Shown here piece by piece: positions 38,194 to 62,716 of a DNA stretch of 64,000 bases. A program made the position numbers and the translations under genes. Every line of letters starts with the position of its first letter. The stretch's first letter is position 1. The notes under the pieces were generated by a model that worked only from the letters and a program-made list of their open reading frames with translations, made no database searches and was not told the DNA's origin. The stretch is from a virus, in IMG/VR virus record IMGVR_UViG_3300003702_000496, positions 1 to 64,000 of that record. The stretch is one strand, 5' to 3'.

Positions 38194-38874
38194 TTAGACG
38201 ATCCACTCGGCCATATTTTTAAATTCTTCGCTTATACCCGAAGCATTTCTCTTTTCCATTCCCAAGATCAACTGCCACGGATTCATTCCAAGATTCCCTG
38301 CAAGAATAATTCTCTCATGGTCACATTGTTGTTCTGATACTTGATGTCTTATCCAGCCAGGAAACAATACCATGTTTCCTTTTATCGGAGCAATCTGATA
38401 TGATGCATCCTCAAAGATTAACGGCGCACAGTTTTCACAACATTCTACATTATATACCCAACTCCATATTTGAGGCCAATGCTCATGTAACTTGGTATAA
38501 TTTCCTTTGGTATATATCGCGCCCCAACAATCATATGGCATTAACGGAACTCCCTGTCTTGGAGAATTGTCATACGCCAATTCTATTGCCATACGACACA
38601 CTTCCATAAAATCTGAATTAGTTTCATGCATATACCAGCCAGTCATACTTGCTTGCACATTAGTTGAAGATTTTTGAACATCACCAATATCCCTACATGT
38701 TTGTACAAGTCTTTTCTGAAGTTCTTCGTTTGAACAATCTTTTTGTACAACAGGATACTTTACACGAAAAGATTGAGAGTGTGGATTGGTTGTTAGTTGT
38801 CTAAGTTTCTTTTCCTCTAATATATTTTCTTTTTCTATATTAGATACAAGTGCTTTTAGATGGTTCCTACTCAT
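38194..38874 (-). CDS. 2OG-Fe(II) oxygenase (HxH type)
   Basis: HEHWP, LFPGWIRH, R.ILAGN; start moved to the ATGA overlap at 38874. Confidence 0.85.
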   Translation of the reverse strand: MSRNHLKALVSNIEKENILEEKKLRQLTTNPHSQSFRVKYPVVQKDCSNEELQKRLVQTCRDIGDVQKSSTNVQASMTGWYMHETNSDFMEVCRMAIELAYDNSPRQGVPLMPYDCWGAIYTKGNYTKLHEHWPQIWSWVYNVECCENCAPLIFEDASYQIAPIKGNMVLFPGWIRHQVSEQQCDHERIILAGNLGMNPWQLILGMEKRNASGISEEFKNMAEWIV

Positions 38875-39434
38875 GGTAATGATGGTTCCTCTGGATACCA
38901 ATACCATCCTGTAATAATATATTTTGGATGAGTGTGTATAGGATTACCTCTATGTTGATACATCCATGCAGCAGGAAATATACAACCCATTCCTTCCTTT
39001 GGTTGTATGCGTATCTTCTCATATAGAAATTCTGTTTCACCTTCACCTTTCGGAATATCATTCAGATAGATAGTCCATACCAGAGCTCTGGCACAGTTTT
39101 CCCAATGAGTTATTTCCGCATGGAAATTGTGAAACCCCCCACCCATAGGATTTGTACGTTGTATCTTAATTTCGGGTGTAAGTAAAATTTTTGCTCCTCT
39201 ATATGCACAAGGAAACTCTTCCAAGTATTCCCGTAACATGTCCATAGTAGCTTTGTGTACTGGTTCATATAATTCAGAATTTTCTGGAAGCCATATCTGC
39301 TTATCCTTACGACTGACACGATTGGGTTCTTCAATTCTTACATTCTTTGGAGAACTTTCAAACCAGTCTATAAGAGAGTCACATAGGTCAAAAGAAAGTG
39401 CATTATCAAATCCTCTTACAAAATCACGAATCAT
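38871..39434 (-). CDS. 2OG-Fe(II) oxygenase (prolyl-hydroxylase-like)
   Basis: FHAE, IYLND, GETEF, HRG, KYIITGW. Confidence 0.9.
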   Translation of the reverse strand: MIRDFVRGFDNALSFDLCDSLIDWFESSPKNVRIEEPNRVSRKDKQIWLPENSELYEPVHKATMDMLREYLEEFPCAYRGAKILLTPEIKIQRTNPMGGGFHNFHAEITHWENCARALVWTIYLNDIPKGEGETEFLYEKIRIQPKEGMGCIFPAAWMYQHRGNPIHTHPKYIITGWYWYPEEPSLP

Positions 39435-40041
39435 TATTCATATCAATATTTAAATTGCCCGCAACCATAATACGATCATGATCACAATCATGCGTAGGAA
39501 CTTCATGCATAATCCATGCAGGGAAAACAATTAACTGAAAAGGTTTAGGCATCACTTTGAGTTTCTTCTCGCTTGTAGGAAATATTAATGGAGAACAGAA
39601 CTCACATGCGTATACACAATAGGTATACGACCAGAGAGATGGCCAATGATTATGTACTTTTGCTTCTTGCCATTTCTGGTATATAAGACCCCAACTCTCT
39701 TTGATATATAATGGGACTTCTTTTTTTTCGCCGGTCGTATCGGTACGCGTAGCTACAGGACAAGCTTGTGCAATCTTAATTGCTTCATTTCCAACCACTT
39801 CAAAAGATTTATATAACTCATGCATATCCCATCGAGTCATAAGACACTTAGCCGCAGTACGAGTTTGTAAATGATCGCCTGCATCTCTTATGTCTCTTTC
39901 CAAATATTTGTTAAGAGACTTCAACAACGGCCGTTCTTTTTCGTTTATCGTTTTTATTTTTACTGGATACTTATCCGTAAAATTTGGCCAGGGCCCTCGT
40001 TCATTATTTTTTCCATATACTAAATCACTTAATGCACTCAT
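39424..40041 (-). CDS. 2OG-Fe(II) oxygenase (HxH type)
   Basis: HNHWP, VFPAWIMHEV, RIMVAGN; paralog of 38194-38874. Confidence 0.85.
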   Translation of the reverse strand: MSALSDLVYGKNNERGPWPNFTDKYPVKIKTINEKERPLLKSLNKYLERDIRDAGDHLQTRTAAKCLMTRWDMHELYKSFEVVGNEAIKIAQACPVATRTDTTGEKKEVPLYIKESWGLIYQKWQEAKVHNHWPSLWSYTYCVYACEFCSPLIFPTSEKKLKVMPKPFQLIVFPAWIMHEVPTHDCDHDRIMVAGNLNIDMNNDS

Positions 40042-40739
40042 ATAACAATCTCTTGTATGTTGGTTTCATCTGGGTGATGACCATCAAATTTAGGTTCCTT
40101 TCCTTTAGGAAGAAAATAAAACCAGCCTGTTGCAATATATTTAAGGCCTTCGTTTGGTGTAACTCCTTTATGTGGATGTGTCCAACCTGCTGGCCAGATC
40201 ACCGTTCTACCAGTTTTAGCCCTTACTAGTTTTTCTTGATAAGGAAACCATGTGCCACACCTCGCGTTATTCAAATAGATCATCCATGCAAGCATACGAT
40301 AGGGATACGAACCAGAGTGCTCGTTATGCAATGCAAAGAATCCTTCCTTCTCGCCATCGTATCGTTGCACATTATAGAAAGGACATAATCTCCACTGACT
40401 TGCTTTGTTAATCGTATTCAGATAACCATATTTTTTTGTATAAGATTCCAGTGCAGAATGTATAAAGTAATAAATTGGATCGTTAATGGAATTGTCTGCG
40501 CCGAAGTCAAAAGTTTTAGTCGCACAAACCTTTTGACGATTCTTATTAAAATACGCAAGCCCAGAATCCTTGGAAGCATTATCGTCATAAACAGACTCAA
40601 AAAATTGAATTATTCTTTCGCAGTTCTTTCTGCCTGCCTCAACCCAATCTTTACGAATTAATATCGGTTGAGAAGAACTTTCTTCAACAACACTTCGCGC
40701 AGAGTCAAGATCATATGTTTCAATAAAATCAAAAAACAT
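40038..40739 (-). CDS. 2OG-Fe(II) oxygenase (prolyl-hydroxylase-like)
   Basis: LHNE, MIYLN, WPAGWTHPHKG, KYIATGW. Confidence 0.9.
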   Translation of the reverse strand: MFFDFIETYDLDSARSVVEESSSQPILIRKDWVEAGRKNCERIIQFFESVYDDNASKDSGLAYFNKNRQKVCATKTFDFGADNSINDPIYYFIHSALESYTKKYGYLNTINKASQWRLCPFYNVQRYDGEKEGFFALHNEHSGSYPYRMLAWMIYLNNARCGTWFPYQEKLVRAKTGRTVIWPAGWTHPHKGVTPNEGLKYIATGWFYFLPKGKEPKFDGHHPDETNIQEIVI

Positions 40740-42578: not shown

Positions 42579-43343
42579 TTAATTTCCATCAAAAAGAACT
42601 TGCATTTTATTAATATTTTGTTCAAATATTTTTGTATTTATATTCATACTAAATGATCTTCGTTCACCAATACCCTTAAAAGGATATGCTGTATGTCTTA
42701 GATTAGCAGGGAACAAATACCAATTACCAACCTTTGGAACAAATCCTATTCCATCATTTTCAAAGAACGCTTTCTCATTAGGACCGCTATTATTCAGAAT
42801 TTCCAAAACTCCGTTTAAGTCAATATGTTTTTTGTAGTTAGATTTAATGCTTTTTTTATGTTCCTTTGATAAATCGGGAACTTTCAAAAATCCTACACAA
42901 GTTAATTCAGAATCTGGGTGGGTGTGGATGGGATTATAATCTCCAGCAAAAGATTGTACATACCAAGCAGATATAACATCAACTTGGATTTCATTAATAT
43001 TTTTCAATGCTTGTTCTTTAGGAATAATGATAAAATTTTGTTCTGGAATATAAAGTTCATTATAATATCCAGCTATATATCTTTGTACTTGTTTACCAAA
43101 CCATTGACCCCATTTATTAATAACATCAATCGGAATTTTAAGTTCCTGTTTAACTTGACCAACGAGGGTATGTGAAAAATCTTCTGATTTTAATAGTTCT
43201 TCATCTTTAATAATATCATCACAACCTTTATTAAGATCAATTACTAATTCTTTTGGTAATTCAGCATAACCGATTGGCGGACCAAATGGAAAGTATGTTT
43301 GTAAAGGATTTCCGAAATCGTGTGGGGGTAAAGGAGTTTTCAT
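42579..43343 (-). CDS. 2OG-Fe(II) oxygenase (TIGR02466-like HxH type)
   Basis: W...GDYNPIHTH, LFPANLRH..YPF..GERRSFSMN. Confidence 0.88.
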   Translation of the reverse strand: MKTPLPPHDFGNPLQTYFPFGPPIGYAELPKELVIDLNKGCDDIIKDEELLKSEDFSHTLVGQVKQELKIPIDVINKWGQWFGKQVQRYIAGYYNELYIPEQNFIIIPKEQALKNINEIQVDVISAWYVQSFAGDYNPIHTHPDSELTCVGFLKVPDLSKEHKKSIKSNYKKHIDLNGVLEILNNSGPNEKAFFENDGIGFVPKVGNWYLFPANLRHTAYPFKGIGERRSFSMNINTKIFEQNINKMQVLFDGN

Positions 43344-46411: not shown

Positions 46412-46633
46412 TTATTCTTTAAGTATATACTTCATACCGCAATAGCCGCAAACCGCGAAACCACTCTCTTCTATGGTGTAGTATACAACGGGATGATCAT
46501 TGTCACACTTAATTTTTCTGTTATGTACTGTGGTGCTGTCAGAACTGAATACATATTTTTCATCTACTCTTACAATGCGTTCCTCTTCGGGAATAACATA
46601 GCTATTCTCTGCGTTTGCCTTTCTCAATGGCAT
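46412..46633 (-). CDS. zf-CHCC zinc-finger protein (NDUFS6-like)
   Basis: C..DHPVVY......CGYCG. Confidence 0.85.
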   Translation of the reverse strand: MPLRKANAENSYVIPEEERIVRVDEKYVFSSDSTTVHNRKIKCDNDHPVVYYTIEESGFAVCGYCGMKYILKE

Positions 46634-47046
46634 GATTTTCCGAACTTTCTTAAACGAATATAGTTATAGGGAAGCGGAGCGATATAACCAGCTATCAGCA
46701 TCAGGGGGATTACAAACCAATTCAGTTCAGCACCGCCTGTCACAACGAAGTCTATTGCGTTCATCACTGCTTCCATAGTTATCATAGAGATAAGGGACAT
46801 ACCAGCTGCGGTTTTGAGCGCGAGTTTAAACGGTAATTGTTTGCTGAGAATTATGGTTTCTAACAGAATTGAGGTGAGTATGCCATTTACGATGGCTAAC
46901 GTCAAAATTGACCACACTGGCCAAGGAATTTCGGTTAACTGAAAGAACAGTATAGTACCAAAATCACCTATTGAGCACCCTATCAGACACCATAGCGTGT
47001 TGATTAGAGTGCGTTTATATAGATCAATTAGAATGTTATTTTTCAT
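46624..47046 (-). CDS. DUF4396-like membrane protein
   Basis: TLWCLIGCSIGD, SMITME..MN, AG...PLPYNY..L. Confidence 0.8.
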   Translation of the reverse strand: MKNNILIDLYKRTLINTLWCLIGCSIGDFGTILFFQLTEIPWPVWSILTLAIVNGILTSILLETIILSKQLPFKLALKTAAGMSLISMITMEAVMNAIDFVVTGGAELNWFVIPLMLIAGYIAPLPYNYIRLRKFGKSCH

Positions 47047-47161: not shown

Positions 47162-47890
47162 TTACTTTTTGTACAATATGCTGTTCATGCTGCATGTTGC
47201 ATTTCTTCCAAAGTAGTCACAATAATATGTATCTACGAATAAAGTATTCGGTATTTTCAATTTGGTTTGTGCTCTTCCTCTTGTATCTTCTATAATCATA
47301 TAATCTTTCTCGTTCATATGCAAATCAAAATACGCTATTACTGCATTTACGTTCACATGAGCATCCTCTATTATAAGCCACGGATGAGGTGGGAAGTTTC
47401 GGTGGCCGACGAAGAAATAGTTCTCGATATCAAACGCCAAGGGCGTTGAGAATGCATTCTCTAGTGTCTCTATTTTCTCACTGTCTCCTTTTACGAAAGT
47501 CACTCCCTCATAACTAGTAGTTGGTGGATTTATGTCTACGCTAATTATCTTTGTATTCACAAGTCCATACATCTTACATAAATCTGCCATCCATATTGCA
47601 CTTCCGCCTTCGCTTCCGCTTCCTATTTCCAGTATCGTAGCGGGTTTTATATCCCATATCATCATACTGTACAATGTGAAGTCAAATACGGTCTTGTAGA
47701 GGGGTATTCCTTTCCATGTCATGCAATTCTTTACACCCTGGCTCATAAGTAATGTATCTATATGTACATGGCTAGTCTCAGGACGTTCCGAAAAAGAAAC
47801 AAACTTCTCTTGTTTTCTTATTTCCGAAATGTCTTTTTGTTTATCTTTAGAAAGTATATTAATATTTCTTTTTAAATAGGTGTCTGTCAT
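47162..47890 (-). CDS. CmcI / cephalosporin-hydroxylase-family SAM-dependent methyltransferase
   Basis: WKG.PL.K..FD, IKP..ILEIG...GGSA.W, SVDI, GDS, LIIEDAH, Y.IIED. Confidence 0.85.
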   Translation of the reverse strand: MTDTYLKRNINILSKDKQKDISEIRKQEKFVSFSERPETSHVHIDTLLMSQGVKNCMTWKGIPLYKTVFDFTLYSMMIWDIKPATILEIGSGSEGGSAIWMADLCKMYGLVNTKIISVDINPPTTSYEGVTFVKGDSEKIETLENAFSTPLAFDIENYFFVGHRNFPPHPWLIIEDAHVNVNAVIAYFDLHMNEKDYMIIEDTRGRAQTKLKIPNTLFVDTYYCDYFGRNATCSMNSILYKK

Positions 47891-48882: not shown

Positions 48883-49539
48883 CTACGGAGCTCCGGCCGG
48901 TGGTGGCGCACTCTGTGGTTCAACACGACTATCTGTAAATTCTGTTGGGTCATTGATGATACTTATTGGGTCTTTATTTGTGTCAATAATACTTCCCAAC
49001 TTATTCAGAGTTATTCTCCGAATTGTAATTTCCTCTCCTCTTTTGAGCATCACCACCTTCTCTTCAAATAAAATTCTATATGGATTTATTTTTATCATTT
49101 GCACTGTTATATTTGTTAGGTCCGGCGATTTTTTATTAAACATATGAACATTGATAATATATTCGCCCGGGTGCCATCCGCGCAATGAGACTACTTCTCT
49201 GTTCAGAAGTATAATTTGTCGAGTGCCATCAGGAAGAATAAGTGTATCATTGATGGAGCCAAGATCATCCTTATCCAGATGCATCAATCCTTCAACTTTA
49301 TTCTTGAAAGAGACATGCTTTTTTAGTGGGTTTCGTACCCACAAATCCACATCATCATGTGACTCCTTATCCCATTCAAGAACAATAATATATTCCGCTT
49401 TTCTCTCCACCTCAGATTGTTTTGTAACTGGATTTATCAACAACAATGCTAGAATTAACATACTGATAAACGCTAACAGTAGAATGAATAAAAAATCAAC
49501 AAACGCTAGATTATTATGAAATCTACGAATTTGACGCAT
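48883..49539 (-). CDS. Single-TM ExbD/MotB-like partner with a YfaP/DUF2135-like periplasmic domain
   Basis: AFVDFLF TM with Asp; W....DDVDLWV..P, LD.DD.G, N.E, GEY.INVH. Confidence 0.65.
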   Translation of the reverse strand: MRQIRRFHNNLAFVDFLFILLLAFISMLILALLLINPVTKQSEVERKAEYIIVLEWDKESHDDVDLWVRNPLKKHVSFKNKVEGLMHLDKDDLGSINDTLILPDGTRQIILLNREVVSLRGWHPGEYIINVHMFNKKSPDLTNITVQMIKINPYRILFEEKVVMLKRGEEITIRRITLNKLGSIIDTNKDPISIINDPTEFTDSRVEPQSAPPPAGAP

Positions 49540-49963
49540 TATATGTTACTAATTGTATTTTAAGAATGACAGAGGAAATTAGTCCCAATAAGGTTGTGCT
49601 TAGAGCTGTATATAGTCCTCTACTCATTGATGACAGAACTGCTCGTATGCTTTCAACATCAGTGAATTGTACTGAATCAAATGTTCCGATTAACATTATC
49701 ATAAATCCGATAATGGTTCCTATCATACCGAGCGTAAGAACGGCATCAGAAATAAACCATTCTACTTCATTATCAAATTGTTTCTTAAAAAATGATTTAT
49801 AACCAAGTGATAATGTTGTAGCTCCAAATACCATAGTAATTAGATAAGTTATCATTGTTGCATCTTTTTCATACAACGGCAATAACCAATCATTTGCATA
49901 CGAGAAGTATATCAAAACTCCAAGTACACACATTGTTAACCACCAGCGTAGTGATTTTATCAT
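49523..49963 (-). CDS. MotA/TolQ/ExbB proton-channel family protein
   Basis: LGMIGTIIGF...G...AL.TTL.GL motif; start set at MIKSLRWW after SD AAGGGAG. Confidence 0.85.
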   Translation of the reverse strand: MIKSLRWWLTMCVLGVLIYFSYANDWLLPLYEKDATMITYLITMVFGATTLSLGYKSFFKKQFDNEVEWFISDAVLTLGMIGTIIGFMIMLIGTFDSVQFTDVESIRAVLSSMSRGLYTALSTTLLGLISSVILKIQLVTYNASNS

Positions 49964-50667
49964 ATTACTCCCTTTTTCTGACTTAGTATACTTTTTTCTG
50001 TTAATTCCGGCCCGCTTTCCAAATTTTCTTTCTGCTCCCACGGCCTTTCATATGACGTATTGATATCGGGATTTGTCTCACCGTATATAATTGGCAACGT
50101 GTTCCAAAAGATTACGCCTATAGATACGCGATTTCCTTCATATGGTTGTACTGCATGAGTTACATTCATTGGAAAGGATATCAGTCTATTTACAATTGGC
50201 GCTATCGAATCTGTTTCAATCTCCGCCCATGAGAATAATTCCTTCTCATTTATTTTTACTCTGGTAACAGGCGGTTTAGTATAGATATTTAGATGTCCTC
50301 CAGCTGTAGGTGCTCTCAGATAATATATAAATGTCTTTTCTGGCGGATTGGGTGGCGTGTAATCTACTCCGCCACTGGTGCAATAAGATACTAAATCACT
50401 ATGCGGTAAAGGGTCTTTTGGTCTAATGTTCCACCAAGCAGTTGCACCAGATATATCCTGATGCCACTGCACTGCTGTTGCACTAGATATAGAACTATGA
50501 TCTAATTCATGGTAGAATTTATAGAAAATCTTATGAACCAGATCATGAAATGCGTTCTCAGGTTTAGCATTTCTTCCTATCCAGTGGACTTCCGAGAATT
50601 TCATAGAAGTCGTGCCCAATGCTAGATATAAGGATTCGTCTAAAAAATTGTCTGTTATTGTTATCAT
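49960..50667 (-). CDS. 2OG-Fe(II) oxygenase
   Basis: I.DNFL, PHSD, IYYL, GG.L, NRL, HAV, R.SI. Confidence 0.8.
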   Translation of the reverse strand: MITITDNFLDESLYLALGTTSMKFSEVHWIGRNAKPENAFHDLVHKIFYKFYHELDHSSISSATAVQWHQDISGATAWWNIRPKDPLPHSDLVSYCTSGGVDYTPPNPPEKTFIYYLRAPTAGGHLNIYTKPPVTRVKINEKELFSWAEIETDSIAPIVNRLISFPMNVTHAVQPYEGNRVSIGVIFWNTLPIIYGETNPDINTSYERPWEQKENLESGPELTEKSILSQKKGVI

Positions 50668-50963
50668 ACACCGAAGCTTTCCCCACAACCACAAGAACTG
50701 GTAGAAGTAGGATTTACTACCTTTAGAAAACTACCACCAAGCTCTGTTACATAATCTATTTCGCTACCAATAACATACATCTCTGCCATTGGGTCTAGTA
50801 TCAGTATATCATCAATTAAATAGGGAGTATTGTCTGTTTCTGATGTTGTTCCCCATATATATTGGAATCCAGCACAACCCCCGCCCTTTACACCAAGAGT
50901 TATGTATCCACCGTTGGACACAGTATGCATATATTCCTTTGCACGACTTGTAAGTTTAATCAT
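50664..50963 (-). CDS. iscA: HesB/IscA Fe-S cluster assembly protein
   Basis: GGGCAGFQY and SSCGCGESF. Confidence 0.95.
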   Translation of the reverse strand: MIKLTSRAKEYMHTVSNGGYITLGVKGGGCAGFQYIWGTTSETDNTPYLIDDILILDPMAEMYVIGSEIDYVTELGGSFLKVVNPTSTSSCGCGESFGV

Positions 50964-50971
50964 ATACTTAT

Positions 50972-51109
50972 TTAGGTTAAACGCTTTGCCTTGCGTAATA
51001 GATATGCTATAACCGTATCCCAATAGTTTTTAGCCCATTCGGTTTTAGATACTTCCCTCGCAGAATATGCTCGATCTATTCTCTCAGTTATTAAGTCTAA
51101 GATCATCAT
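50972..51109 (-). CDS. Small hypothetical protein (45 aa; EWAKNYW)
   Basis: Read by hand; fills an otherwise empty gap. Confidence 0.6.
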   Translation of the reverse strand: MMILDLITERIDRAYSAREVSKTEWAKNYWDTVIAYLLRKAKRLT

Positions 51110-52902: not shown

Positions 52903-53199
52903 TTATAATGTACACAAATCATGATAACCTAGTTCGCGAAGAGTGTTATTCCACTCTTCCTCTTTTCTCATAAAGGAAAGTTTTTCGTTTCGGTTTCTGC
53001 TATACTCACGAAGTTTCTCTTTGTTATTCTCGCGATATTTCTTTGCAGCTGCAAGAACTTTCTCTTTGTTATTCTCACGCCATTTCTTTGCAGATTCAAG
53101 AACTTTCTCTGGATACCTCTCACGGTATCTAATATTAGAAGCGCGCTTTTTCTCTGCTTTAGTCATAACAACTTCTTCATTTCTCATTACCATGTCCAA
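52903..53199 (-). CDS. Basic repeat protein (KKWRENNKEK repeats)
   Basis: Repeats resemble linker regions of phage homing endonucleases, but no nuclease domain is present. Confidence 0.6.
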   Translation of the reverse strand: MDMVMRNEEVVMTKAEKKRASNIRYRERYPEKVLESAKKWRENNKEKVLAAAKKYRENNKEKLREYSRNRNEKLSFMRKEEEWNNTLRELGYHDLCTL

Positions 53200-53936
53200 T
53201 CCCGATTACGCCGGCCGGAGCGCCAAGGCTTCTTCTTTAAAGCGTTAATGTTACGAGTTAGTTTGTTCTTCTTATCAATGGTATTAGTGGAGGCCTGCAA
53301 ACTCTCAGCGAAGTGGATAATGGCCATCTTGACTTCCCTATGCCGTTTGTGGTAGTTCTTTCCACCGACAATACGAAACTCAATCCATCCAGTACCCTTT
53401 TTGATATTCAATTTTGACATGTTGATCGAATCGTACTTGTACTTATTATTCATCTTGTTCTTGAGTTTGGTAAACACCCTATCCTGAGAATCATTTTTTC
53501 TCAGGGTCAGGCCCTTCTTCATAGGTTCAACAAACTCGTTTTGAGTGCGCTTGAATGCCCTTAACCACTTCTGTTCATCCACAAGTAGAACTAGTTTTGC
53601 CTCATCAATCTTCTTGGTTTCACTTTTTCGGGAGAATCCCAGATTGATATGAAGACCACATGACGCATTTGTTTGAGCGTTCATGAGTTCCATCAAAGTG
53701 AACAATTTGTCTATCGCCTTCAAGCCCTTTTTCAAAGACCAAACAGGCGTGACAATCTCCACATCTGAATTGTCCCTATTGGTTGTAACAGAAGGATCAT
53801 CTGTTACAATGAATTTGTCCCGAGTCCTGAAACTGTTGCGGTCAACAATTTCGGGGAAGATCGCCTTCACTGCACCTCTGATTGTAGAACTAGGGGCATC
53901 TACACCCATCTCTAGTTCATAACCAACTTCGATCAT
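53187..53936 (-). CDS. Putative amidoligase (COOH-NH2 ligase superfamily)
   Basis: G.ELE, D.S, EIVTP, N.SCGLHI, KY..IN, IEFR. Confidence 0.88.
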   Translation of the reverse strand: MIEVGYELEMGVDAPSSTIRGAVKAIFPEIVDRNSFRTRDKFIVTDDPSVTTNRDNSDVEIVTPVWSLKKGLKAIDKLFTLMELMNAQTNASCGLHINLGFSRKSETKKIDEAKLVLLVDEQKWLRAFKRTQNEFVEPMKKGLTLRKNDSQDRVFTKLKNKMNNKYKYDSINMSKLNIKKGTGWIEFRIVGGKNYHKRHREVKMAIIHFAESLQASTNTIDKKNKLTRNINALKKKPWRSGRRNRDWTW

Positions 53937-53965: not shown

Positions 53966-53994
53966 ATGCTACCATATGGGATAGGGTTTGTCAA
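53966..53994 (-). promoter_or_regulatory. Sigma70-type early promoter TTGACA-N17-TAGCAT
   Basis: Perfect -35, 17-nt spacer, TGn. Confidence 0.8.
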
Positions 53995-54218
53995 CTAAAA
54001 TCGCCCGGGGCCCAGAACGCTCGTTCTGGAGTCCAAGAAAAATTTCTATCATCGAGCCATCGCCATTCACCCGTTTTCAACGACTGAATAGGAGGCAGAC
54101 GGCGAGGGTGTGACATTTTTATCACACCTGGCGGCAAGTCTAAGACTTCCCACTGGTCGCCGTGTTCATGGACACGGTTTTTCCCGTGTCTGGTGATACC
54201 TTTAAGGGTAATAATCAT
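53991..54218 (-). CDS. Hypothetical early protein (LKGITRHGKNRVHEHG..W)
   Basis: ORF directly after a promoter, near-leaderless. Confidence 0.75.
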   Translation of the reverse strand: MIITLKGITRHGKNRVHEHGDQWEVLDLPPGVIKMSHPRRLPPIQSLKTGEWRWLDDRNFSWTPERAFWAPGDFS

Positions 54219-54226
54219 TATGTCTT

Positions 54227-54255
54227 ATTCTAACACATGGGACAGGGTTTGTCAA
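54227..54255 (-). promoter_or_regulatory. Sigma70-type early promoter TTGACA-N17-TAGAAT
   Basis: Perfect -35, 17-nt spacer, TGn. Confidence 0.85.
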
Positions 54256-54269
54256 ATCAGCCCCCCTGT

Positions 54270-54428
54270 TAAGTCATTGAAATTAAAGACAGAATCGAGG
54301 TTTTTTTTCTACTTTTTTTGTGGTTAAGCCATTGATAATAAACAAAACTTTTTTTATGTCTAAGTCATTGATTCTAAACGATTTTGAAAAAAAAGTTCAA
54401 AAATCTTTTAAGTCATTGATATATAAAG
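54270..54428. repeat. Four direct repeats TAAG(T/C)CATTGA-N3/4-TAAA
   Basis: Copies start at 54270, 54325, 54361 and 54409 in an A/T-tract-rich interval. Confidence 0.85.
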
Positions 54429-55297
54429 ATATTGTCTGTGAGGAAGTCATAGACCTCAGAAAATGGGCCTGCGGAAATCATAATTATCGCATCTCTATCA
54501 AGGGCATTCAATTCTTCTAAAGTCTCAGCACAACAGATGTCCACATAGCATTCATCCGATTGTATGTGAGAAGTGATATATCTTTTGATATAGTCTATTG
54601 ATTCAATCTTAGACCAAGTAGATACTTCCTGTAAGGTTTGATATATGGAGACAGCCCTCTGACGGTCAGACTGCGTTAATAGTTTATTACGAGAACTACA
54701 AGCAAGACCATCAGAATCCCTTATGATAGGAGCTATGACTACCTTTATGGGAAGACCTAACTGTTTGATAAGAGATTTTAACCCAAAATTTTGATATGCG
54801 TCCTTTTGCCCGACCACAGTTATATCTGGCATTATAACATTAAATACTGGAAAATATGTTGAAAGAACATACGTCAATCTGGGAGAGATAGTCGCATCAA
54901 ATGTATCACGATTTCTCCAGAAAGCATATGCTTTCTCACACATTTCTATGGGAATACTCAAATCATCTATATATAATTGATCCCCTACTCCACCAATATA
55001 AAAAAATACATCTACCCCATTTGATTTTGCTAATTCAATATCTCTTGAAAGTCCATTTGACATCTTTCTATATTGCAATAAACTTTTCGTATATTCTTCA
55101 GCGGATTGTTCTTTATAATCTACACTGTGACCAGCACTTAGTACCACTACATCAGCATTTTCTTTGGCAATCTTTACCAAGGACATATGACCATCATGTA
55201 ATTCTGCATCTGTATCTATAGATGCTATAGTTTTACCTTCACGTTTTAATCGTTGACAATAATCTTTTGTCACTTGAATTGATTCTATAAATTTCAT
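54413..55297 (-). CDS. Pantothenate synthetase (PanC)-like amide ligase, paralog 3
   Basis: LHDGH (HIGH motif), GQKD, RDSDGLACSSRN; pantoate-site motifs altered. Confidence 0.85.
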   Translation of the reverse strand: MKFIESIQVTKDYCQRLKREGKTIASIDTDAELHDGHMSLVKIAKENADVVVLSAGHSVDYKEQSAEEYTKSLLQYRKMSNGLSRDIELAKSNGVDVFFYIGGVGDQLYIDDLSIPIEMCEKAYAFWRNRDTFDATISPRLTYVLSTYFPVFNVIMPDITVVGQKDAYQNFGLKSLIKQLGLPIKVVIAPIIRDSDGLACSSRNKLLTQSDRQRAVSIYQTLQEVSTWSKIESIDYIKRYITSHIQSDECYVDICCAETLEELNALDRDAIIMISAGPFSEVYDFLTDNIFIYQ

Positions 55298-55300
55298 TTC

Positions 55301-56167
55301 TTAATTACTTTGATATTTTAGTATTGGTAATTTCTCAATAGTTACATAACCAGGCGGCGCCTGTAGAATATGAGGTATTCTGTTTATCGTTTGAGCTGAT
55401 GTTACCACAGGCGATCCTAATCCATCCACTTTTACGTTAAGGTTTGGTTCGCCCCTTATTTCCCACGCTTTAAACTCTTCCCCCACAATTAACTTATATT
55501 GACCAACCATTCTTATACCTTCTTTAGTCGTAATATCCAACTTTGTACCACTCGCATCTATAGTTTCTTCTACATCTATAATATTCAGATTTAAAGCTGA
55601 AGCTACATTATCCCAAAATGTTACATATATACTTGGACTTTTTGATAATGTAGCAAATGTTTCGGGCCCGAAATTAGTTGTATCAAAACAACTACGATAG
55701 ATAATTTCATCTATTCGATGGCAAGCACCTGACATTAATACTCCTAGATGCACAATACCAAAATCTTGAGCACCAGTTCCAGTGATTGTGACACCATATT
55801 CTTTTGCTATATTATCTAATTCAACAGTTAGTTCGGGGTATAGTCTCCATGAAAATGAAGAACTTTCTCCTATAGTAGCTACATTCTTTCTTGCTTCTAA
55901 ACACTGTTTGTAAATTGGAAACATTATAGGCAATTCACTTGCTACTGCAACAATAACGATATCTGCTGTCTTTGATAACACCTTTTCTGGGTCATCAGAT
56001 ATAGGTACATTCAAATAATCAATGCCGGACAATAAACCCAAATCTTTACCAATTTTAGGGCCGGGTCTATTGATTGCTCCTACAATATCAATACCCCTTT
56101 CTTTTAATAATCTTGTAGCCAACATATTCATTTGGCCCACACCATATATTATAACTTTTGTTGTCAT
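55301..56167 (-). CDS. NAD(P)-dependent amine dehydrogenase / 2,4-diaminopentanoate dehydrogenase-like (DapB-like fold)
   Basis: YGVGQM Rossmann motif, GKDLG, NV.TIGE, GTG, T.A..INRIP....APPG..T. Confidence 0.8.
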   Translation of the reverse strand: MTTKVIIYGVGQMNMLATRLLKERGIDIVGAINRPGPKIGKDLGLLSGIDYLNVPISDDPEKVLSKTADIVIVAVASELPIMFPIYKQCLEARKNVATIGESSSFSWRLYPELTVELDNIAKEYGVTITGTGAQDFGIVHLGVLMSGACHRIDEIIYRSCFDTTNFGPETFATLSKSPSIYVTFWDNVASALNLNIIDVEETIDASGTKLDITTKEGIRMVGQYKLIVGEEFKAWEIRGEPNLNVKVDGLGSPVVTSAQTINRIPHILQAPPGYVTIEKLPILKYQSN

Positions 56168-56170
56168 ATC

Positions 56171-57034
56171 TTACCTCGGTTCTATTATAATGTTATCATA
56201 AAGTTCATCCACATCACCAAACCTTACATTAACAACAATCACAAATTTTCTATCAATTGAATTCAATTCTTCTAGGGTTTCTGCACAACAGATATCTATG
56301 CAATTTACTGTTCCATTATTTCTAGTTATACATTCATTAATGTACATTTTGATACGTTGTATTGAAGGATATGCAGGCCAAGCAGATACTTCCTGTAATG
56401 TTTCGTTAAGGGAAATAAGATTGTTATAATCATCTTTCGTTAAATCTCTATTATGAGAACTAAAAGCCACACCATTAGAATCTCTAACGATAGGAGCTAT
56501 AATTACCTTTATGGGAAGACTTGATTGTTTGATAAGATATTTAAGGACAACAATTTGATGTACATCCTTTTGACCTAATATAGATACATCAGGCAGTATA
56601 ATATTATACAATTCTTTAGCACCCAACATAAATTTCATATTTACAGGGGGAAAATAAGGTCTATCTATTATCAACTGATCAATTACAGGAATAGAAACAT
56701 TTAAAGGAGGAATATCTAAATATAAATCATTCATCGGAGGAAGAAAAAGTACATCTACATTATTTAACTTACATATTTCAATTTCTTTTTCTTTAAAATC
56801 TTGTTCATATACTTTTAATTGTGCTTCATATTTTTCAATGGAAGAGTCAAAATAATCAACTGTGTGACAAATGCTCAATACTACTGCGTCAACATTTTCT
56901 TTAGCAACCTTTACCAAGGACATATGGCCATCATGTAAATCTCCTTCAGTATCTATTAATCCAATAGTCTTTCCTATTTGTTTTACTTGTCGAGAATATT
57001 CTCGCATTTCTTTAATTGACTCAATAATTTTCAT
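56171..57034 (-). CDS. PanC-like amide ligase, paralog 2
   Basis: LHDGH, GQKD, RDSNGVAFSSHN, LYDN. Confidence 0.85.
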   Translation of the reverse strand: MKIIESIKEMREYSRQVKQIGKTIGLIDTEGDLHDGHMSLVKVAKENVDAVVLSICHTVDYFDSSIEKYEAQLKVYEQDFKEKEIEICKLNNVDVLFLPPMNDLYLDIPPLNVSIPVIDQLIIDRPYFPPVNMKFMLGAKELYNIILPDVSILGQKDVHQIVVLKYLIKQSSLPIKVIIAPIVRDSNGVAFSSHNRDLTKDDYNNLISLNETLQEVSAWPAYPSIQRIKMYINECITRNNGTVNCIDICCAETLEELNSIDRKFVIVVNVRFGDVDELYDNIIIEPR

Positions 57035-57945
57035 CTAGCATAACCAAGATGCTTTGGTTCTATTATAATGTTATCATAAAGTTCAATCACGTTACCAAAT
57101 TGTGTAGAAACTAAAATTACTGCTTTTCTATCAATTGTCTTTAATTCTTCTAAGGTTTCTGCACAACAGATATCTATGTAATTTACTGTTCCGTCAGAAG
57201 CTTCTATGCGTTCATTAATATACATCTTAACACGTTGTATTGAGGGATATTCAGACCAAGTAGATACTTCCTGTAATGTTTTATAGACAGAAGAAACATT
57301 TATAAGTTCTTCTTTATTTAAAGCTGCGTTACGAGAACTTAAAGCTACACCATTAGAATCTCTAATGGTAGGAGCAATAATTAATTTAATTGAATAATTC
57401 AAATCATCTATAAGAGATTTAAGATAAGAAGTTAATTCATAAACATCTTTTTCTCCAATTACACTCACATCGGGCGACACAATATTAAATATTTTTAAAT
57501 TCATGAGCAGGTATAGAGATATAATATCTCCATATCCATTAGCTAAATTTGGATTCCAAGCCCTCTTTTTGATAAATCTGTCAACAAGAAGACCAGATAA
57601 AGTTATTTTATTTGTCAAATTTGAATATACATCTAACATACTAGGTTGAAACAATATATCTACATCATATTTTTCACATGTAGCAAGATCATCTTTTAAA
57701 AACTCTGCATGATATTCTGCTATATGTTTTTCGTATCTCTCAGGATGATTTAAATAATAAAAATAATAAAAAGTATGAAAATTACTCATCACTACTACGT
57801 CAACATTTTCTTTGGCAACCTTTACCAAAGACATATGACCATCATGTAAATAAGATTCTGTAGCAACAGATGCTATAGTTTTACCGTCACGTTTAAGTTG
57901 TTGAGAATACTCTCGCATCTCGTCAATTGATTCAATAATTTTCAT
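57031..57945 (-). CDS. PanC-like amide ligase, paralog 1
   Basis: LHDGH, GEKD, RDSNGVALSSRN, LYDN. Confidence 0.85.
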   Translation of the reverse strand: MKIIESIDEMREYSQQLKRDGKTIASVATESYLHDGHMSLVKVAKENVDVVVMSNFHTFYYFYYLNHPERYEKHIAEYHAEFLKDDLATCEKYDVDILFQPSMLDVYSNLTNKITLSGLLVDRFIKKRAWNPNLANGYGDIISLYLLMNLKIFNIVSPDVSVIGEKDVYELTSYLKSLIDDLNYSIKLIIAPTIRDSNGVALSSRNAALNKEELINVSSVYKTLQEVSTWSEYPSIQRVKMYINERIEASDGTVNYIDICCAETLEELKTIDRKAVILVSTQFGNVIELYDNIIIEPKHLGYAR

Positions 57946-58118
57946 TTTTTTAATTCCACTTCTGCTTTATGTCCACAATGAGGACAAGTCATTTCTGGCC
58001 ATTTTTTCCAAACAGCATCTGTAGTTGCCCAACTAGTTGCATAACTCCACCAATTCATGCACTTAACACAATTGAAATGAAGTATCAACTCTTTTGTATA
58101 TGTGTGATTTATACCCAC
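57942..58118 (-). CDS. Small zinc-ribbon protein (58 aa; HFNCVKC..WWS...CPHCG)
   Basis: Read by hand, GTG start; ATGA overlap with PanC paralog 1. Confidence 0.7.
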   Translation of the reverse strand: MGINHTYTKELILHFNCVKCMNWWSYATSWATTDAVWKKWPEMTCPHCGHKAEVELKK

Positions 58119-58126
58119 TTTGAAAC

Positions 58127-58155
58127 ATTATATAACAATTCTTGATGAATGTCAA
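58127..58155 (-). promoter_or_regulatory. Consensus sigma70 promoter TTGACA-N17-TATAAT driving the PanC-like operon
   Basis: Perfect -35 and -10 hexamers with 17-nt spacer. Confidence 0.9.
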
Positions 58156-58165
58156 GAACCTTTTG

Positions 58166-58828
58166 TTAACGTCTTTTCTTAGATAACTCCATTGCAATCC
58201 AATCCTTGGCTCGCGTATTCTGAACTTTTCTTTTAGCGAGTTTTTGTACACGTTTGAAAACTTGGGTAAAGATATCCTCTCCAGCATCATTGTTATCTAT
58301 GATAATCATACCAGCGCCAAAGAAGTTATTAAATTTACCAAGATTTGCTTGTACATCTTTCCACGATTTAATTACTTTAGATTCTGGAACACTACGAGGA
58401 CGTTCTGCATTTCGTTGAAGGGCAACATCAAGAGAGGTGTTCACAAATATCATATATGTGTCATATCCCAACTCTTGCAGTTGTCTTGCTTGCATTTGTA
58501 TCTTATCAAAGTCTCTGCCTGTGCCATCTATGATAAGACCAAGACGCCCCTCAAGAAAATTTTCTTTTCTTTTTGCAGTAATTTCTTTTGCTCGCGCACG
58601 AACAATATCTCTAGGAGCTTCTTGTTCTGAGGGCATCTTGAGAGACAGACCAGCCTTTTTCAGAAGAGTTTCAAAAGCATCATCTGAATTAACTGATTTA
58701 AGTCCCATACCACCAGTGGTGCGTCTGGCAACGTATGATTTACCGCTGCCAGGCCCACCAGCTAAAAAGAACGCCTTAAATATATTAGGGTCGTAAACCC
58801 CCTCTTGCAACTCTCTGAATGTCTTCAT
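58166..58828 (-). CDS. P-loop kinase (zeta-toxin/AAA_33-like)
   Basis: FLAGGPGSGKS, N.D, IIDGTG, RN..R.R.V. Confidence 0.85.
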   Translation of the reverse strand: MKTFRELQEGVYDPNIFKAFFLAGGPGSGKSYVARRTTGGMGLKSVNSDDAFETLLKKAGLSLKMPSEQEAPRDIVRARAKEITAKRKENFLEGRLGLIIDGTGRDFDKIQMQARQLQELGYDTYMIFVNTSLDVALQRNAERPRSVPESKVIKSWKDVQANLGKFNNFFGAGMIIIDNNDAGEDIFTQVFKRVQKLAKRKVQNTRAKDWIAMELSKKRR

Positions 58829-62269: not shown

Positions 62270-62716
62270 ATGTCTTATTCGGGTCGATACATACCAAAAA
62301 AACCAAACAAATATCGGGGTGATTCACGACGAATCATTTACCGTTCTCTTTGGGAACGTAAATTTATGGTGTATTGTGACACTAATAACTCCATAATTGA
62401 ATGGGGAAGTGAAGAAGTCATTATACCCTATTTATCTCCTTGGGATGGTAGAGTTCATAGATATTTTCCAGATTTTTATATCAAGACAAAACAACATGAT
62501 GGAACAATCAAGAAGTTTATTATAGAAGTTAAGCCCAAAAATCAATGCATTCCACCATCTTCAGAACCAAAGAAAAAAACTAGACGATGGTTTAATGAAG
62601 TCAAAACATGGGGTATTAATAAGGCTAAATGGAAATATGCAACAGAATGGTGTAATAATAATGATATGGAATTTAAAATTTTAACAGAGGAACATCTTAA
62701 CATTCGGTATAAATAA
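62270..62716 (+). CDS. gp4: Head completion nuclease
   Basis: YRSLWE, WGSEE, HRYFPDF, IEVKP, NKAKW. Confidence 0.95.
   Translation: MSYSGRYIPKKPNKYRGDSRRIIYRSLWERKFMVYCDTNNSIIEWGSEEVIIPYLSPWDGRVHRYFPDFYIKTKQHDGTIKKFIIEVKPKNQCIPPSSEPKKKTRRWFNEVKTWGINKAKWKYATEWCNNNDMEFKILTEEHLNIRYK
62708..62715 (+). promoter_or_regulatory. T4-type late promoter for gp2
   Basis: Exact TATAAATA overlapping the gp4 stop. Confidence 0.75.

Follow-up and report, generated by a model that had tools for sequence, protein, structure and literature searches.

A marine phage operon of three pantothenate synthetase-like candidate ligases and an amine dehydrogenase homolog

The operon and its promoter

We analyzed a 64,000-nucleotide (nt) stretch of viral DNA, hereafter the window, which corresponds to positions 1 to 64,000 of IMG/VR record IMGVR_UViG_3300003702_000496, and focused on an operon of five tightly packed minus-strand genes within it. 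In order of transcription, these genes encode a small Zn-ribbon protein, two ligases resembling pantothenate synthetase (PanC), here called A and B, a homolog of native amine dehydrogenases (hereafter DH), and a third PanC-like ligase, C (Table 1). The source record is an 83-kb contig, 46% complete, from a T4-like myophage distantly related to Methylophilales phage Melnitz, and near-identical DNA is present in hydrothermal-vent, cold-seep, and deep-seawater metagenomes of 14 studies.

The genes are closely coupled: the Zn-ribbon/A and A/B junctions are ATGA overlaps, while B/DH and DH/C are separated by gaps of 3 nt. A first-pass annotation, made from the sequence alone, had placed a perfect TTGACA-N17-TATAAT promoter ahead of this coupled series, and this was confirmed. 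The site is the sole 12/12 consensus match in the 8-kb region scanned, in which the overall number of promoter-like sites is at chance level. A 35-nt block holding the promoter is also kept at four related loci (L102, L115, L118, and L132), where it lies upstream of differing ligase subfamilies.

Table 1. Features of the operon, its flanks, and other accessory genes of the window (aa, amino acids; ORF, open reading frame; 2OG, 2-oxoglutarate)
Feature	Position	Strand	Remark
Sigma-70-type (T4-early-like) promoter, TTGACA-N17-TATAAT	58127..58155	-	Operon head; 12/12 consensus match
Zn-ribbon, 58 aa	57942-58118	-	CxxC...CxxC; GTG start ~11 nt past the -10 box
PanC-like ligase, subfamily A, 304 aa	57031-57945	-	ATES (PTMG site); SNFHTFYYF (SIFVNPxQF site); GEKDVYE; SSRN
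PanC-like ligase, subfamily B, 287 aa	56171-57034	-	DTEG (PTMG site); SICHTVDYF (SIFVNPxQF site); GQKDVHQ; SSHN
DH, native-amine-dehydrogenase/2,4-diaminopentanoate-dehydrogenase homolog, 288 aa	55301-56167	-	NAD(P) Rossmann domain and trimmed catalytic domain
PanC-like ligase, subfamily C, 294 aa	54413-55297	-	DTDA (PTMG site); SAGHSVDYK (SIFVNPxQF site); GQKDAYQ; SSRN
Spacer 3' of the operon	54270..54419	-	Four TCAATGACTTA copies
P-loop kinase (AAA_33/zeta-like), left flank of island	58166..58828	-	Pfam and PHROG matches
75-aa ORF, right flank of island	53991-54218	-	Promoter-like site at 54255
Amidoligase_2 protein, right flank of island	53187-53936	-	PF12224, E 1e-10; promoter-like site at 53994-53966
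Four tandem 2OG-Fe(II) oxygenase paralogs	38194-40739	-	PF13759/PF13640
Fifth 2OG-Fe(II) oxygenase paralog	42579-43343	-	2 kb from the tandem set
Short tryptophan 2,3-dioxygenase, 173 aa	45766-46287	-	Pfam match
DUF4396 protein	46624-47046	-	Pfam match
CmcI-like methyltransferase	47162-47890	-	Pfam match
MotA/ExbB-family protein	49523-50041	-	Pfam match
IscA-like Fe-S protein	50664-51023	-	Pfam match
TnsA-like endonuclease N-terminal domain protein	62270-62716	+	PF08722, 2e-22; adjoins baseplate genes

Ligase active sites and a virus-only clade

All three ligases match Pfam PF02569, with E values of 4e-46, 9e-44, and 5e-38 for A, B, and C, respectively. The PanC fold proposed for them in the first-pass annotation is borne out by an AlphaFold2 model of ligase B (mean predicted local distance difference test score [pLDDT] 87.3), to which Foldseek assigned template modeling (TM) scores of 0.85-0.87 against the PanC structures 3inn, 2x3f, and 3ag6. 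The sole low-confidence stretch of the model, residues 100-140, is the variable pocket region. With NCBIfam TIGR00018, A, B, and C score 159.7, 140.5, and 122.0 bits, all under the equivalog cutoff of 212.75. PHROGs held no family for the ligases and none for DH.

We aligned the window ligases with Salmonella PanC, the panC product of Microcystis phage MaAM05, and paralogs from two IMG/VR contigs. All three keep LHxGH (as LHDGH), G[QE]KD, and SS(R/H)N, while the counterparts of PTMG and SIFVNPxQF differ from those of PanC in every case (Table 1). RPGHF is absent, and the region that bears it in PanC can no longer be aligned. Thus, each detail we checked of the earlier claim that the adenylation motifs are kept, and the pantoate-site motifs replaced or absent, was seen in the alignment.

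The conserved active-site residues of PanC are His44, His47, Asn69, Gln72, Lys160, and Gln164 in Mycobacterium tuberculosis numbering, and Lys160 and Arg198 form salt bridges to ATP (PMC5772511). No variation was seen across 147/147 phage-type sequences in either His of the HIGH motif, in the Lys and Asp of GxKD, or in the second Ser of SSRN. In the same 147/147 sequences, across all subfamilies, Asn69 is replaced by T, S, I, P, V, or M and Gln72 by Y or F. Gln164 is kept in B, in C, and in most subfamilies, and is Glu or Asp in subfamily A (Glu in the window). Window ligases A and C retain the Arg of SSRN, B has His there, and most clade members keep all ATP-contacting residues. In five of seven subfamilies a new His stands in place of the Val of FVNP, and Asp or Glu is frequent at the old Pro, Met, and position-60 pocket sites. 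Judged by these residues, the window ligases are not pantothenate synthetases.

Marine metagenomes of ENA, JGI, and Tara yielded more than 360 homologs. The split between phage-type sequences and canonical PanC, taken as outgroup, received a support of 100 in a FastTree phylogeny of 162 sequences, and the phage-type clade an SH-like approximate likelihood ratio test (SH-aLRT) value of 100 in an IQ-TREE LG+C20 phylogeny of 63 sequences. When a profile was searched against 1.84 billion representative proteins (50% identity), the same division emerged: the top 18 clusters, with 230-416 bits, all lack PTMG and FVNPxQF, whereas from the 19th hit onward (≤215 bits) each cluster has both. No phage-type gene was present in the species-representative bacterial and archaeal genomes of GTDB, where the best matches were ordinary PanC at ≤34% identity. 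Among GenBank phages, there was no close relative of the ligases and no DH; tblastn returned canonical PanC at ≤30% identity, several of these in non-phage records. Canonical-type viral PanC was found on IMG/VR contigs L020 and L021 and in phage MaAM05, and therefore a real viral panC exists that is distinct from the phage-type ligases; the PanC of contig L007 is likewise canonical.

The clade contains at least seven subfamilies (A-G), with SH-aLRT support of 99 for A, 94 for B, 100 for D, 99 for E, 82 for F, and 100 for G. Subfamily C is broken by only one long branch, and window ligase C groups with 21 other subfamily-C proteins. Among the 40 most subfamily-discriminating columns, 39 fall in residues 28-165 (Salmonella numbering), which comprise the PTMG site, the FVNPxQF site, the gate loop, and the 98-142 segment bearing RPGHF in PanC; 1/40 lies in the C-terminal domain. 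Within subfamilies, the ratio of nonsynonymous to synonymous substitution rates (dN/dS) is 0.22 for residues 28-62, 0.31 for residues 98-148, and 0.42 for the C-terminal domain. Whole-gene medians for the ligases range from 0.23 to 0.51, and window ligase C and its L132 orthologue, 80% identical, give 0.37. All genes are under purifying selection, and gene decay, for which a dN/dS near 1 had been proposed as the sign, is not seen. Since the discriminating columns lie in the pocket region, yet the pocket segments are conserved within subfamilies, the family is by these sequence measures one of discrete, stable pocket types, neither decaying nor continuously hypervariable.

Two other histories of the paralogs were considered and rejected. 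Ongoing arms-race hypervariation of the pocket does not fit a pocket dN/dS of 0.22-0.31, which is not above the 0.42 of the C-terminal domain. Recent gene conversion among the window paralogs is contradicted by their longest exact common stretches, which measure 30, 24, and 18 nt. These short matches, together with conserved blocks that are 70-84% identical, indicate that the window paralogs are old.

Cassette arrays, their genomic sites, and the trimmed dehydrogenase homolog

We scanned IMG/VR and metagenome contigs and classified each ligase ORF in about 60 loci. Marine viral and metagenome contigs carry 1-7 ligase copies in tandem, combined in many ways. The window array reads A-B-DH-C; others read D-E-DH-A (L001), D-DH-B-C-C-C-E-F (L002), D-B-C-C-G-E (L104), D-E-DH-B-G (L106 and L110), E-DH-B-C-E (L109), DH-F'-B-A (L111), D-C-C-B-F'-G (L112), D-DH-C-C-G-C (L121), and C-G-G-G (L122), and eight loci of another lineage carry E-F-C.

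Four loci of the window's own lineage, those sharing its promoter block (L102, L115, L118, and L132), have an upstream P-loop kinase of 86-91% amino acid identity wherever the contigs reach it. This left flank is 75-91% identical in L102, L118, L130, L132, and L136, and on the right flank the 75-aa ORF and the Amidoligase_2 gene are ~90% identical in L102, L118, and L128. Amidoligase_2, a glutamine-synthetase-like amide ligase, constantly adjoins the island on this side within the lineage. Between these flanks the contents differ. The islands of L102 and L118 are bounded on both sides by kinase and amidoligase; both lie behind the window's promoter, that of L102 holding the Zn-ribbon and B alone and that of L118 F alone. 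L132 begins Zn-C, and L115 begins Zn-G-C. The kinase is 60% identical to a protein of Melnitz with baseplate synteny, and Melnitz has the equal baseplate-then-kinase order followed by unrelated small ORFs, which marks the site as a hot spot for accessory genes. At L130 and L136 (kinase 75% identical), a 124-aa ORF that by eye resembles glyoxalase/vicinal oxygen chelate proteins precedes one subfamily-C ligase, and ends 50 nt upstream of the ligase at 2512 and 10001, respectively.

The Zn-ribbon protein has weak matches to PF23903 and phrog_4864. Homologs of ~78% identity head operons before B (L102), C (L132), and G (L115). In L118 (895-990), the gene has been removed by a clean internal deletion that leaves its first 14 nt and last ~25 nt, so that the promoter drives the ligase directly. 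The Zn-ribbon is therefore dispensable, and we rejected it as a carrier or obligate partner of the ligases, given this clean deletion behind the same promoter.

Population variants of the window were seen in individual contigs, all of them single and of low depth, so that they serve as hints only. A 501-nt contig from run X4 (DNA, another study) matches the window with no mismatches and joins 56886 to 57798. The omitted 911 nt equal exactly one gene unit, 16 nt are shared at the junction, and the joined gene would fuse the first 49 codons of A in frame to the remainder of B. It looks like a natural A/B chimera formed by recombination between conserved 5' ends. Contigs from two other samples part from the window at 54393. 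This position falls in the spacer 3' of the operon, where the four TCAATGACTTA copies lie 36-55 nt apart, one of them with a mismatch. The 64-kb window has a single further near-match; the window total does not exceed chance expectation, yet the close grouping of the four stands out, and the clustered copies could be a protein-binding or recombination site.

Other lineages use other sites. The arrays of L001 and L002 have a different Zn-ribbon on one side and genes for DUF3310, ThyX, and a radical-SAM protein on the other; in another lineage, tail-fiber, collagen-like, and 2OG-oxygenase genes come before the array, whose leading gene encodes a small acidic-tail protein. No neighboring gene is common to all three genomic contexts, which argues that the ligases are independent of any particular phage partner. 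In two other lineages, the first ligase gene is overlapped or directly preceded by one for a small protein with a strongly acidic C-terminal tail (such as ...DDDWLEDELDNL or ...EEEEEEGGGTVH). These proteins measure 107-109 aa in L011, L014, L015, L018, L138, L144, L145, and L153, 122-124 aa in L009 and L156, and 103-109 aa in L146, L148, and L150-L152. They may be partners or substrates of the ligases. No homolog of the first type was found among the window ORFs.

DH carries the Pfam domains DapB_N (PF01113) and DAP_DH_C (PF19328). Its best solved relative is the native amine dehydrogenase (AmDH) MsmeAmDH (6iaq, 3e-45), followed by 6iau, 7qzl, and 7xdu, and its model (pLDDT 89.8) has a TM score of 0.84 to 6iaq, well ahead of DapB. 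The catalytic Glu of native AmDHs sits at active-site position P3 (PMC11164908). DH residue E101 aligns with the first Glu of an EE pair in 7qzl and 6iaq, which is E108 of CfusAmDH (numbering set from the W145A mutant chain 7qzl, offset +4), and the catalytic Glu is thus kept. These results uphold the earlier assignment of DH to the family of 2,4-diaminopentanoate dehydrogenase (2,4-DAPDH) and native AmDHs. Its score against the Ord equivalog NF040740, 118.5 bits, is below the cutoff of 400 bits.

Compared with cellular homologs of 334-360 aa, DH has lost ~17 and ~24 residues of the catalytic domain, and the two deletions together remove about 41-45 residues. The cellular homologs are 40-49% identical and come from contigs of up to 800 kb, and a distant DH match was present in 1/401 sampled Pseudomonadota genomes. 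At 90% identity, the short form falls into ~14 clusters, with a dN/dS of ~0.14. It was found in 12 of the ~60 loci fetched, each time within a ligase array, so that DH co-occurs with such paralogs at 11 further loci; the refuting case raised in the first-pass annotation, of a dehydrogenase never found with them elsewhere, is clearly contradicted. Its neighbors in the arrays vary (A, B, C, D, E, or F'). DH is an accessory and not a core part of the arrays.

Elsewhere in the window, the five 2OG-Fe(II) oxygenase paralogs form a second expanded enzyme family, and the TnsA-like protein, encoded on the strand opposite to the operon, may be a homing-type nuclease. Further accessory genes recognized by Pfam are listed in Table 1.

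Interpretation, alternatives, and known systems

We consider it somewhat probable that the operon exemplifies a family specific to viruses, whose members are ATP-dependent amide ligases that adenylate carboxylates and are carried as parallel modular cassettes. The family would have been derived from pantothenate synthetase, with the ATP/adenylation half left intact and the acid and amine pocket rebuilt into discrete specificity classes, amounting to at least seven subfamilies and 18 clusters at 50% identity. Every ligase gene would be a self-sufficient cassette, of which phages carry 1-7 in accessory-gene hot spots, and cassettes are probably swapped by recombination through conserved 5' and 3' ends. 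Here, A, B, C, and the trimmed DH would be co-transcribed from a host-type promoter, probably early in infection. In the likeliest chemistry, an acid and ATP would give an acyl-AMP and PPi, and attack by an amine would then release an amide and AMP. Because of the new Asp, Glu, and His residues lining the pocket, pantoate would not be among the acids used, and β-alanine is probably not among the amines. The frequent Asp/Glu and the common new His hint at substrates with positive charge, and we infer amino acids, di- and polyamines as examples. Working in parallel on host metabolites, the ligases would yield several distinct small-molecule amides, and DH, by turning a ketone into an amine or the reverse, would feed or process the ligase reactions.

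The first-pass annotation had instead joined the genes into one amine-generating and iterative amide-forming pathway, and this part of it found no support in that form. There are single-ligase sites (L102 and L118), the arrays are variable and contain duplications, and DH is present in about one-fifth of the loci. These features, and the loss of the Zn-ribbon in L118, suggest that the ligases are independent modules of specificity, with DH and the Zn-ribbon as accessories.

Several points weigh against this interpretation. The tight translational coupling and the conserved E-F-C order in one lineage would also suit cooperating steps, and the target of a ligase could be a macromolecule instead of a metabolite. 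Ligase activity is predicted for every member from its sequence, and the operon promoter is likewise a putative one, assigned by its match to the consensus. Some copies may be slow or altered enzymes, since B has a His for an ATP-contacting Arg (SSHN) and A has Glu for Gln164. In addition, short contigs lower the apparent ligase copy number per array.

One alternative is a serial assembly line, in which DH makes an amine and the three ligases extend one amide or oligo-amide stepwise, like Mur ligases. The co-directional, coupled genes agree with such a line, as do the eight loci with a conserved order, the embedding of DH in arrays at every occurrence, and the tendency of genomes to hold different subfamilies and not copies of one. 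We nevertheless regard it as rather unlikely, given that related phages carry a single ligase at the very same site (B only in L102, F only in L118), that order and membership vary freely and include repeats of one subfamily (C-C-C and G-G-G), and that most arrays have no DH, which, where present, adjoins A, B, C, D, E, or F'. Modification of a macromolecule is to our mind unlikely; small acids or amines would in that case be joined to a modified DNA base or to the tail or side chain of a protein, from the virion or a carrier. Three genomic contexts without a common neighbor, a window that has no acidic-tail homolog and a dispensable Zn-ribbon, and a promoter of host type rather than late type all count against it, and no DNA-modification genes (hydroxymethylase or aGPT-Pplase) were present among the ORFs scanned. 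What speaks for it is position: in other lineages, an acidic-tail protein of 103-124 aa directly precedes or overlaps the first ligase, in arrays that adjoin tail-fiber, collagen-like, and 2OG-oxygenase genes; the array of L001 and L002 is beside ThyX and a radical-SAM gene; and the window operon comes after baseplate genes and before the Amidoligase_2 gene. For the DNA or virion modification named in the first-pass annotation, we found nothing that points to it.

It is also conceivable that the proteins stop short of making an amide, by sequestering or adenylating a host metabolite or hydrolyzing ATP, or that some copies are non-catalytic partners. PanC is a dimer, so that partner copies can be imagined; some members of subfamilies B, E, and G have His, Ser, or Gly where SSRN has its Arg, and amine-site residues differ between subfamilies. 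Such a role seems improbable for proteins most of which keep every ATP-contacting residue and whose pocket segments are under purifying selection inside subfamilies, all the more as single-copy loci include ligases with fully canonical ATP sites. That the genes are genuine pantothenate synthetases, i.e., auxiliary metabolic genes raising the supply of coenzyme A (CoA), we hold to be highly improbable, in agreement with the earlier view that the operon does not serve pantothenate synthesis. Pfam and JGI do annotate them as pantoate-β-alanine ligase, and a survey of marine viromes counted 'pantoate transferase' and related genes among the abundant vitamin-related viral genes (PMC8940887). However, residues for pantoate and β-alanine are lost (Asn69 and Gln72 in every member, together with PTMG and RPGHF), the scores of 122-160 bits fall short of 212.75, several divergent copies per genome would be senseless for one reaction, and the canonical viral PanC of L007, L020, and L021 differs. 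There is also no match to PF02548, PF02261, or PF02558 (panB, panD, and panE) in the 83-kb record, itself 46% complete, and in principle these steps could come from the host's genes.

The annotation problem reaches beyond this locus. The same survey found pantothenate-related viral genes abundant in deep and oxycline viral fractions and read them as boosting vitamin B5 and CoA (PMC8940887). Its genes may include ones of the same kind as the phage-type ligases. For the phage-type family, the active-site residues examined speak against a vitamin B5/CoA reading and indicate that it is wrong.

If the modular interpretation is extended to other marine myophages, these viruses would carry a combinatorial toolkit of PanC-derived ligases, the cassette set of each defining strain-specific small molecules or covalent modifications. 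We put this forward tentatively, as possible and not as probable. The modified targets would be metabolites, carrier-protein tails, virion parts, or DNA, and the use would lie in host takeover or in evading host defenses. If true, an unrecognized class of phage-encoded biosynthesis would be hidden behind a vitamin-B5 annotation; to our knowledge, phages are not known to have such a function. That variable cassettes of 1-7 copies occupy a fixed, promoter-marked site implies that their products matter for phage fitness in deep-sea hosts. The family would also amount to a natural experiment in re-specifying one adenylating scaffold, with 18 clusters that share identical predicted ATP chemistry and have rebuilt pockets, and could offer enzymology and biocatalysis new amide ligases and a compact amine dehydrogenase.

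Among known systems, PanC itself (EC 6.3.2.1; 2ejc, 1iho, 1mop, and 3ag6) is the closest. The phage ligases share with it the two-domain fold, HxGH, GxKD, and SSRN, a similar length, conserved N- and C-terminal sequences, and presumably the two-step acyl-adenylate/amide chemistry. Unlike PanC, to which they are 26-32% identical, they have Asn69 and Gln72 replaced, have lost PTMG and RPGHF, and in most subfamilies have gained a His; they occur as 1-7 diverged copies per genome, were found only on viral or viral-like marine contigs, and lack panB, panD, and panE. With native AmDHs and 2,4-DAPDH (6iaq, CfusAmDH 6iau, and AmDH4 6g1h), DH has in common the Rossmann N-domain, DAP_DH_C, the catalytic Glu at P3, and an adjoining conserved Gln (PMC11164908). 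In contrast to these enzymes, DH is 288 aa long instead of ~340, carries two deletions in its catalytic domain, and in its short form was seen only in phage ligase arrays. The pocket residues F140 and W145 of CfusAmDH are Ala and Gly in DH, which suggests a larger or more open pocket.

As an analogy, Mur ligases, NIS (nonribosomal peptide synthetase-independent siderophore) synthetases, and ATP-grasp L-amino-acid ligases are each sets of paralogs that apply one ATP chemistry through differing acid and amine pockets. Their folds are unrelated to PanC, and their membership and order are fixed, unlike those of the phage arrays. No account of phage PanC paralogs was found in the literature searched, in line with the first-pass annotation, which had taken the operon for a candidate undescribed pathway. 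The fold and the chemistry are already known; the new points are a radiation confined to viruses, a lost pantoate site, the arrangement in cassettes, and the short AmDH.

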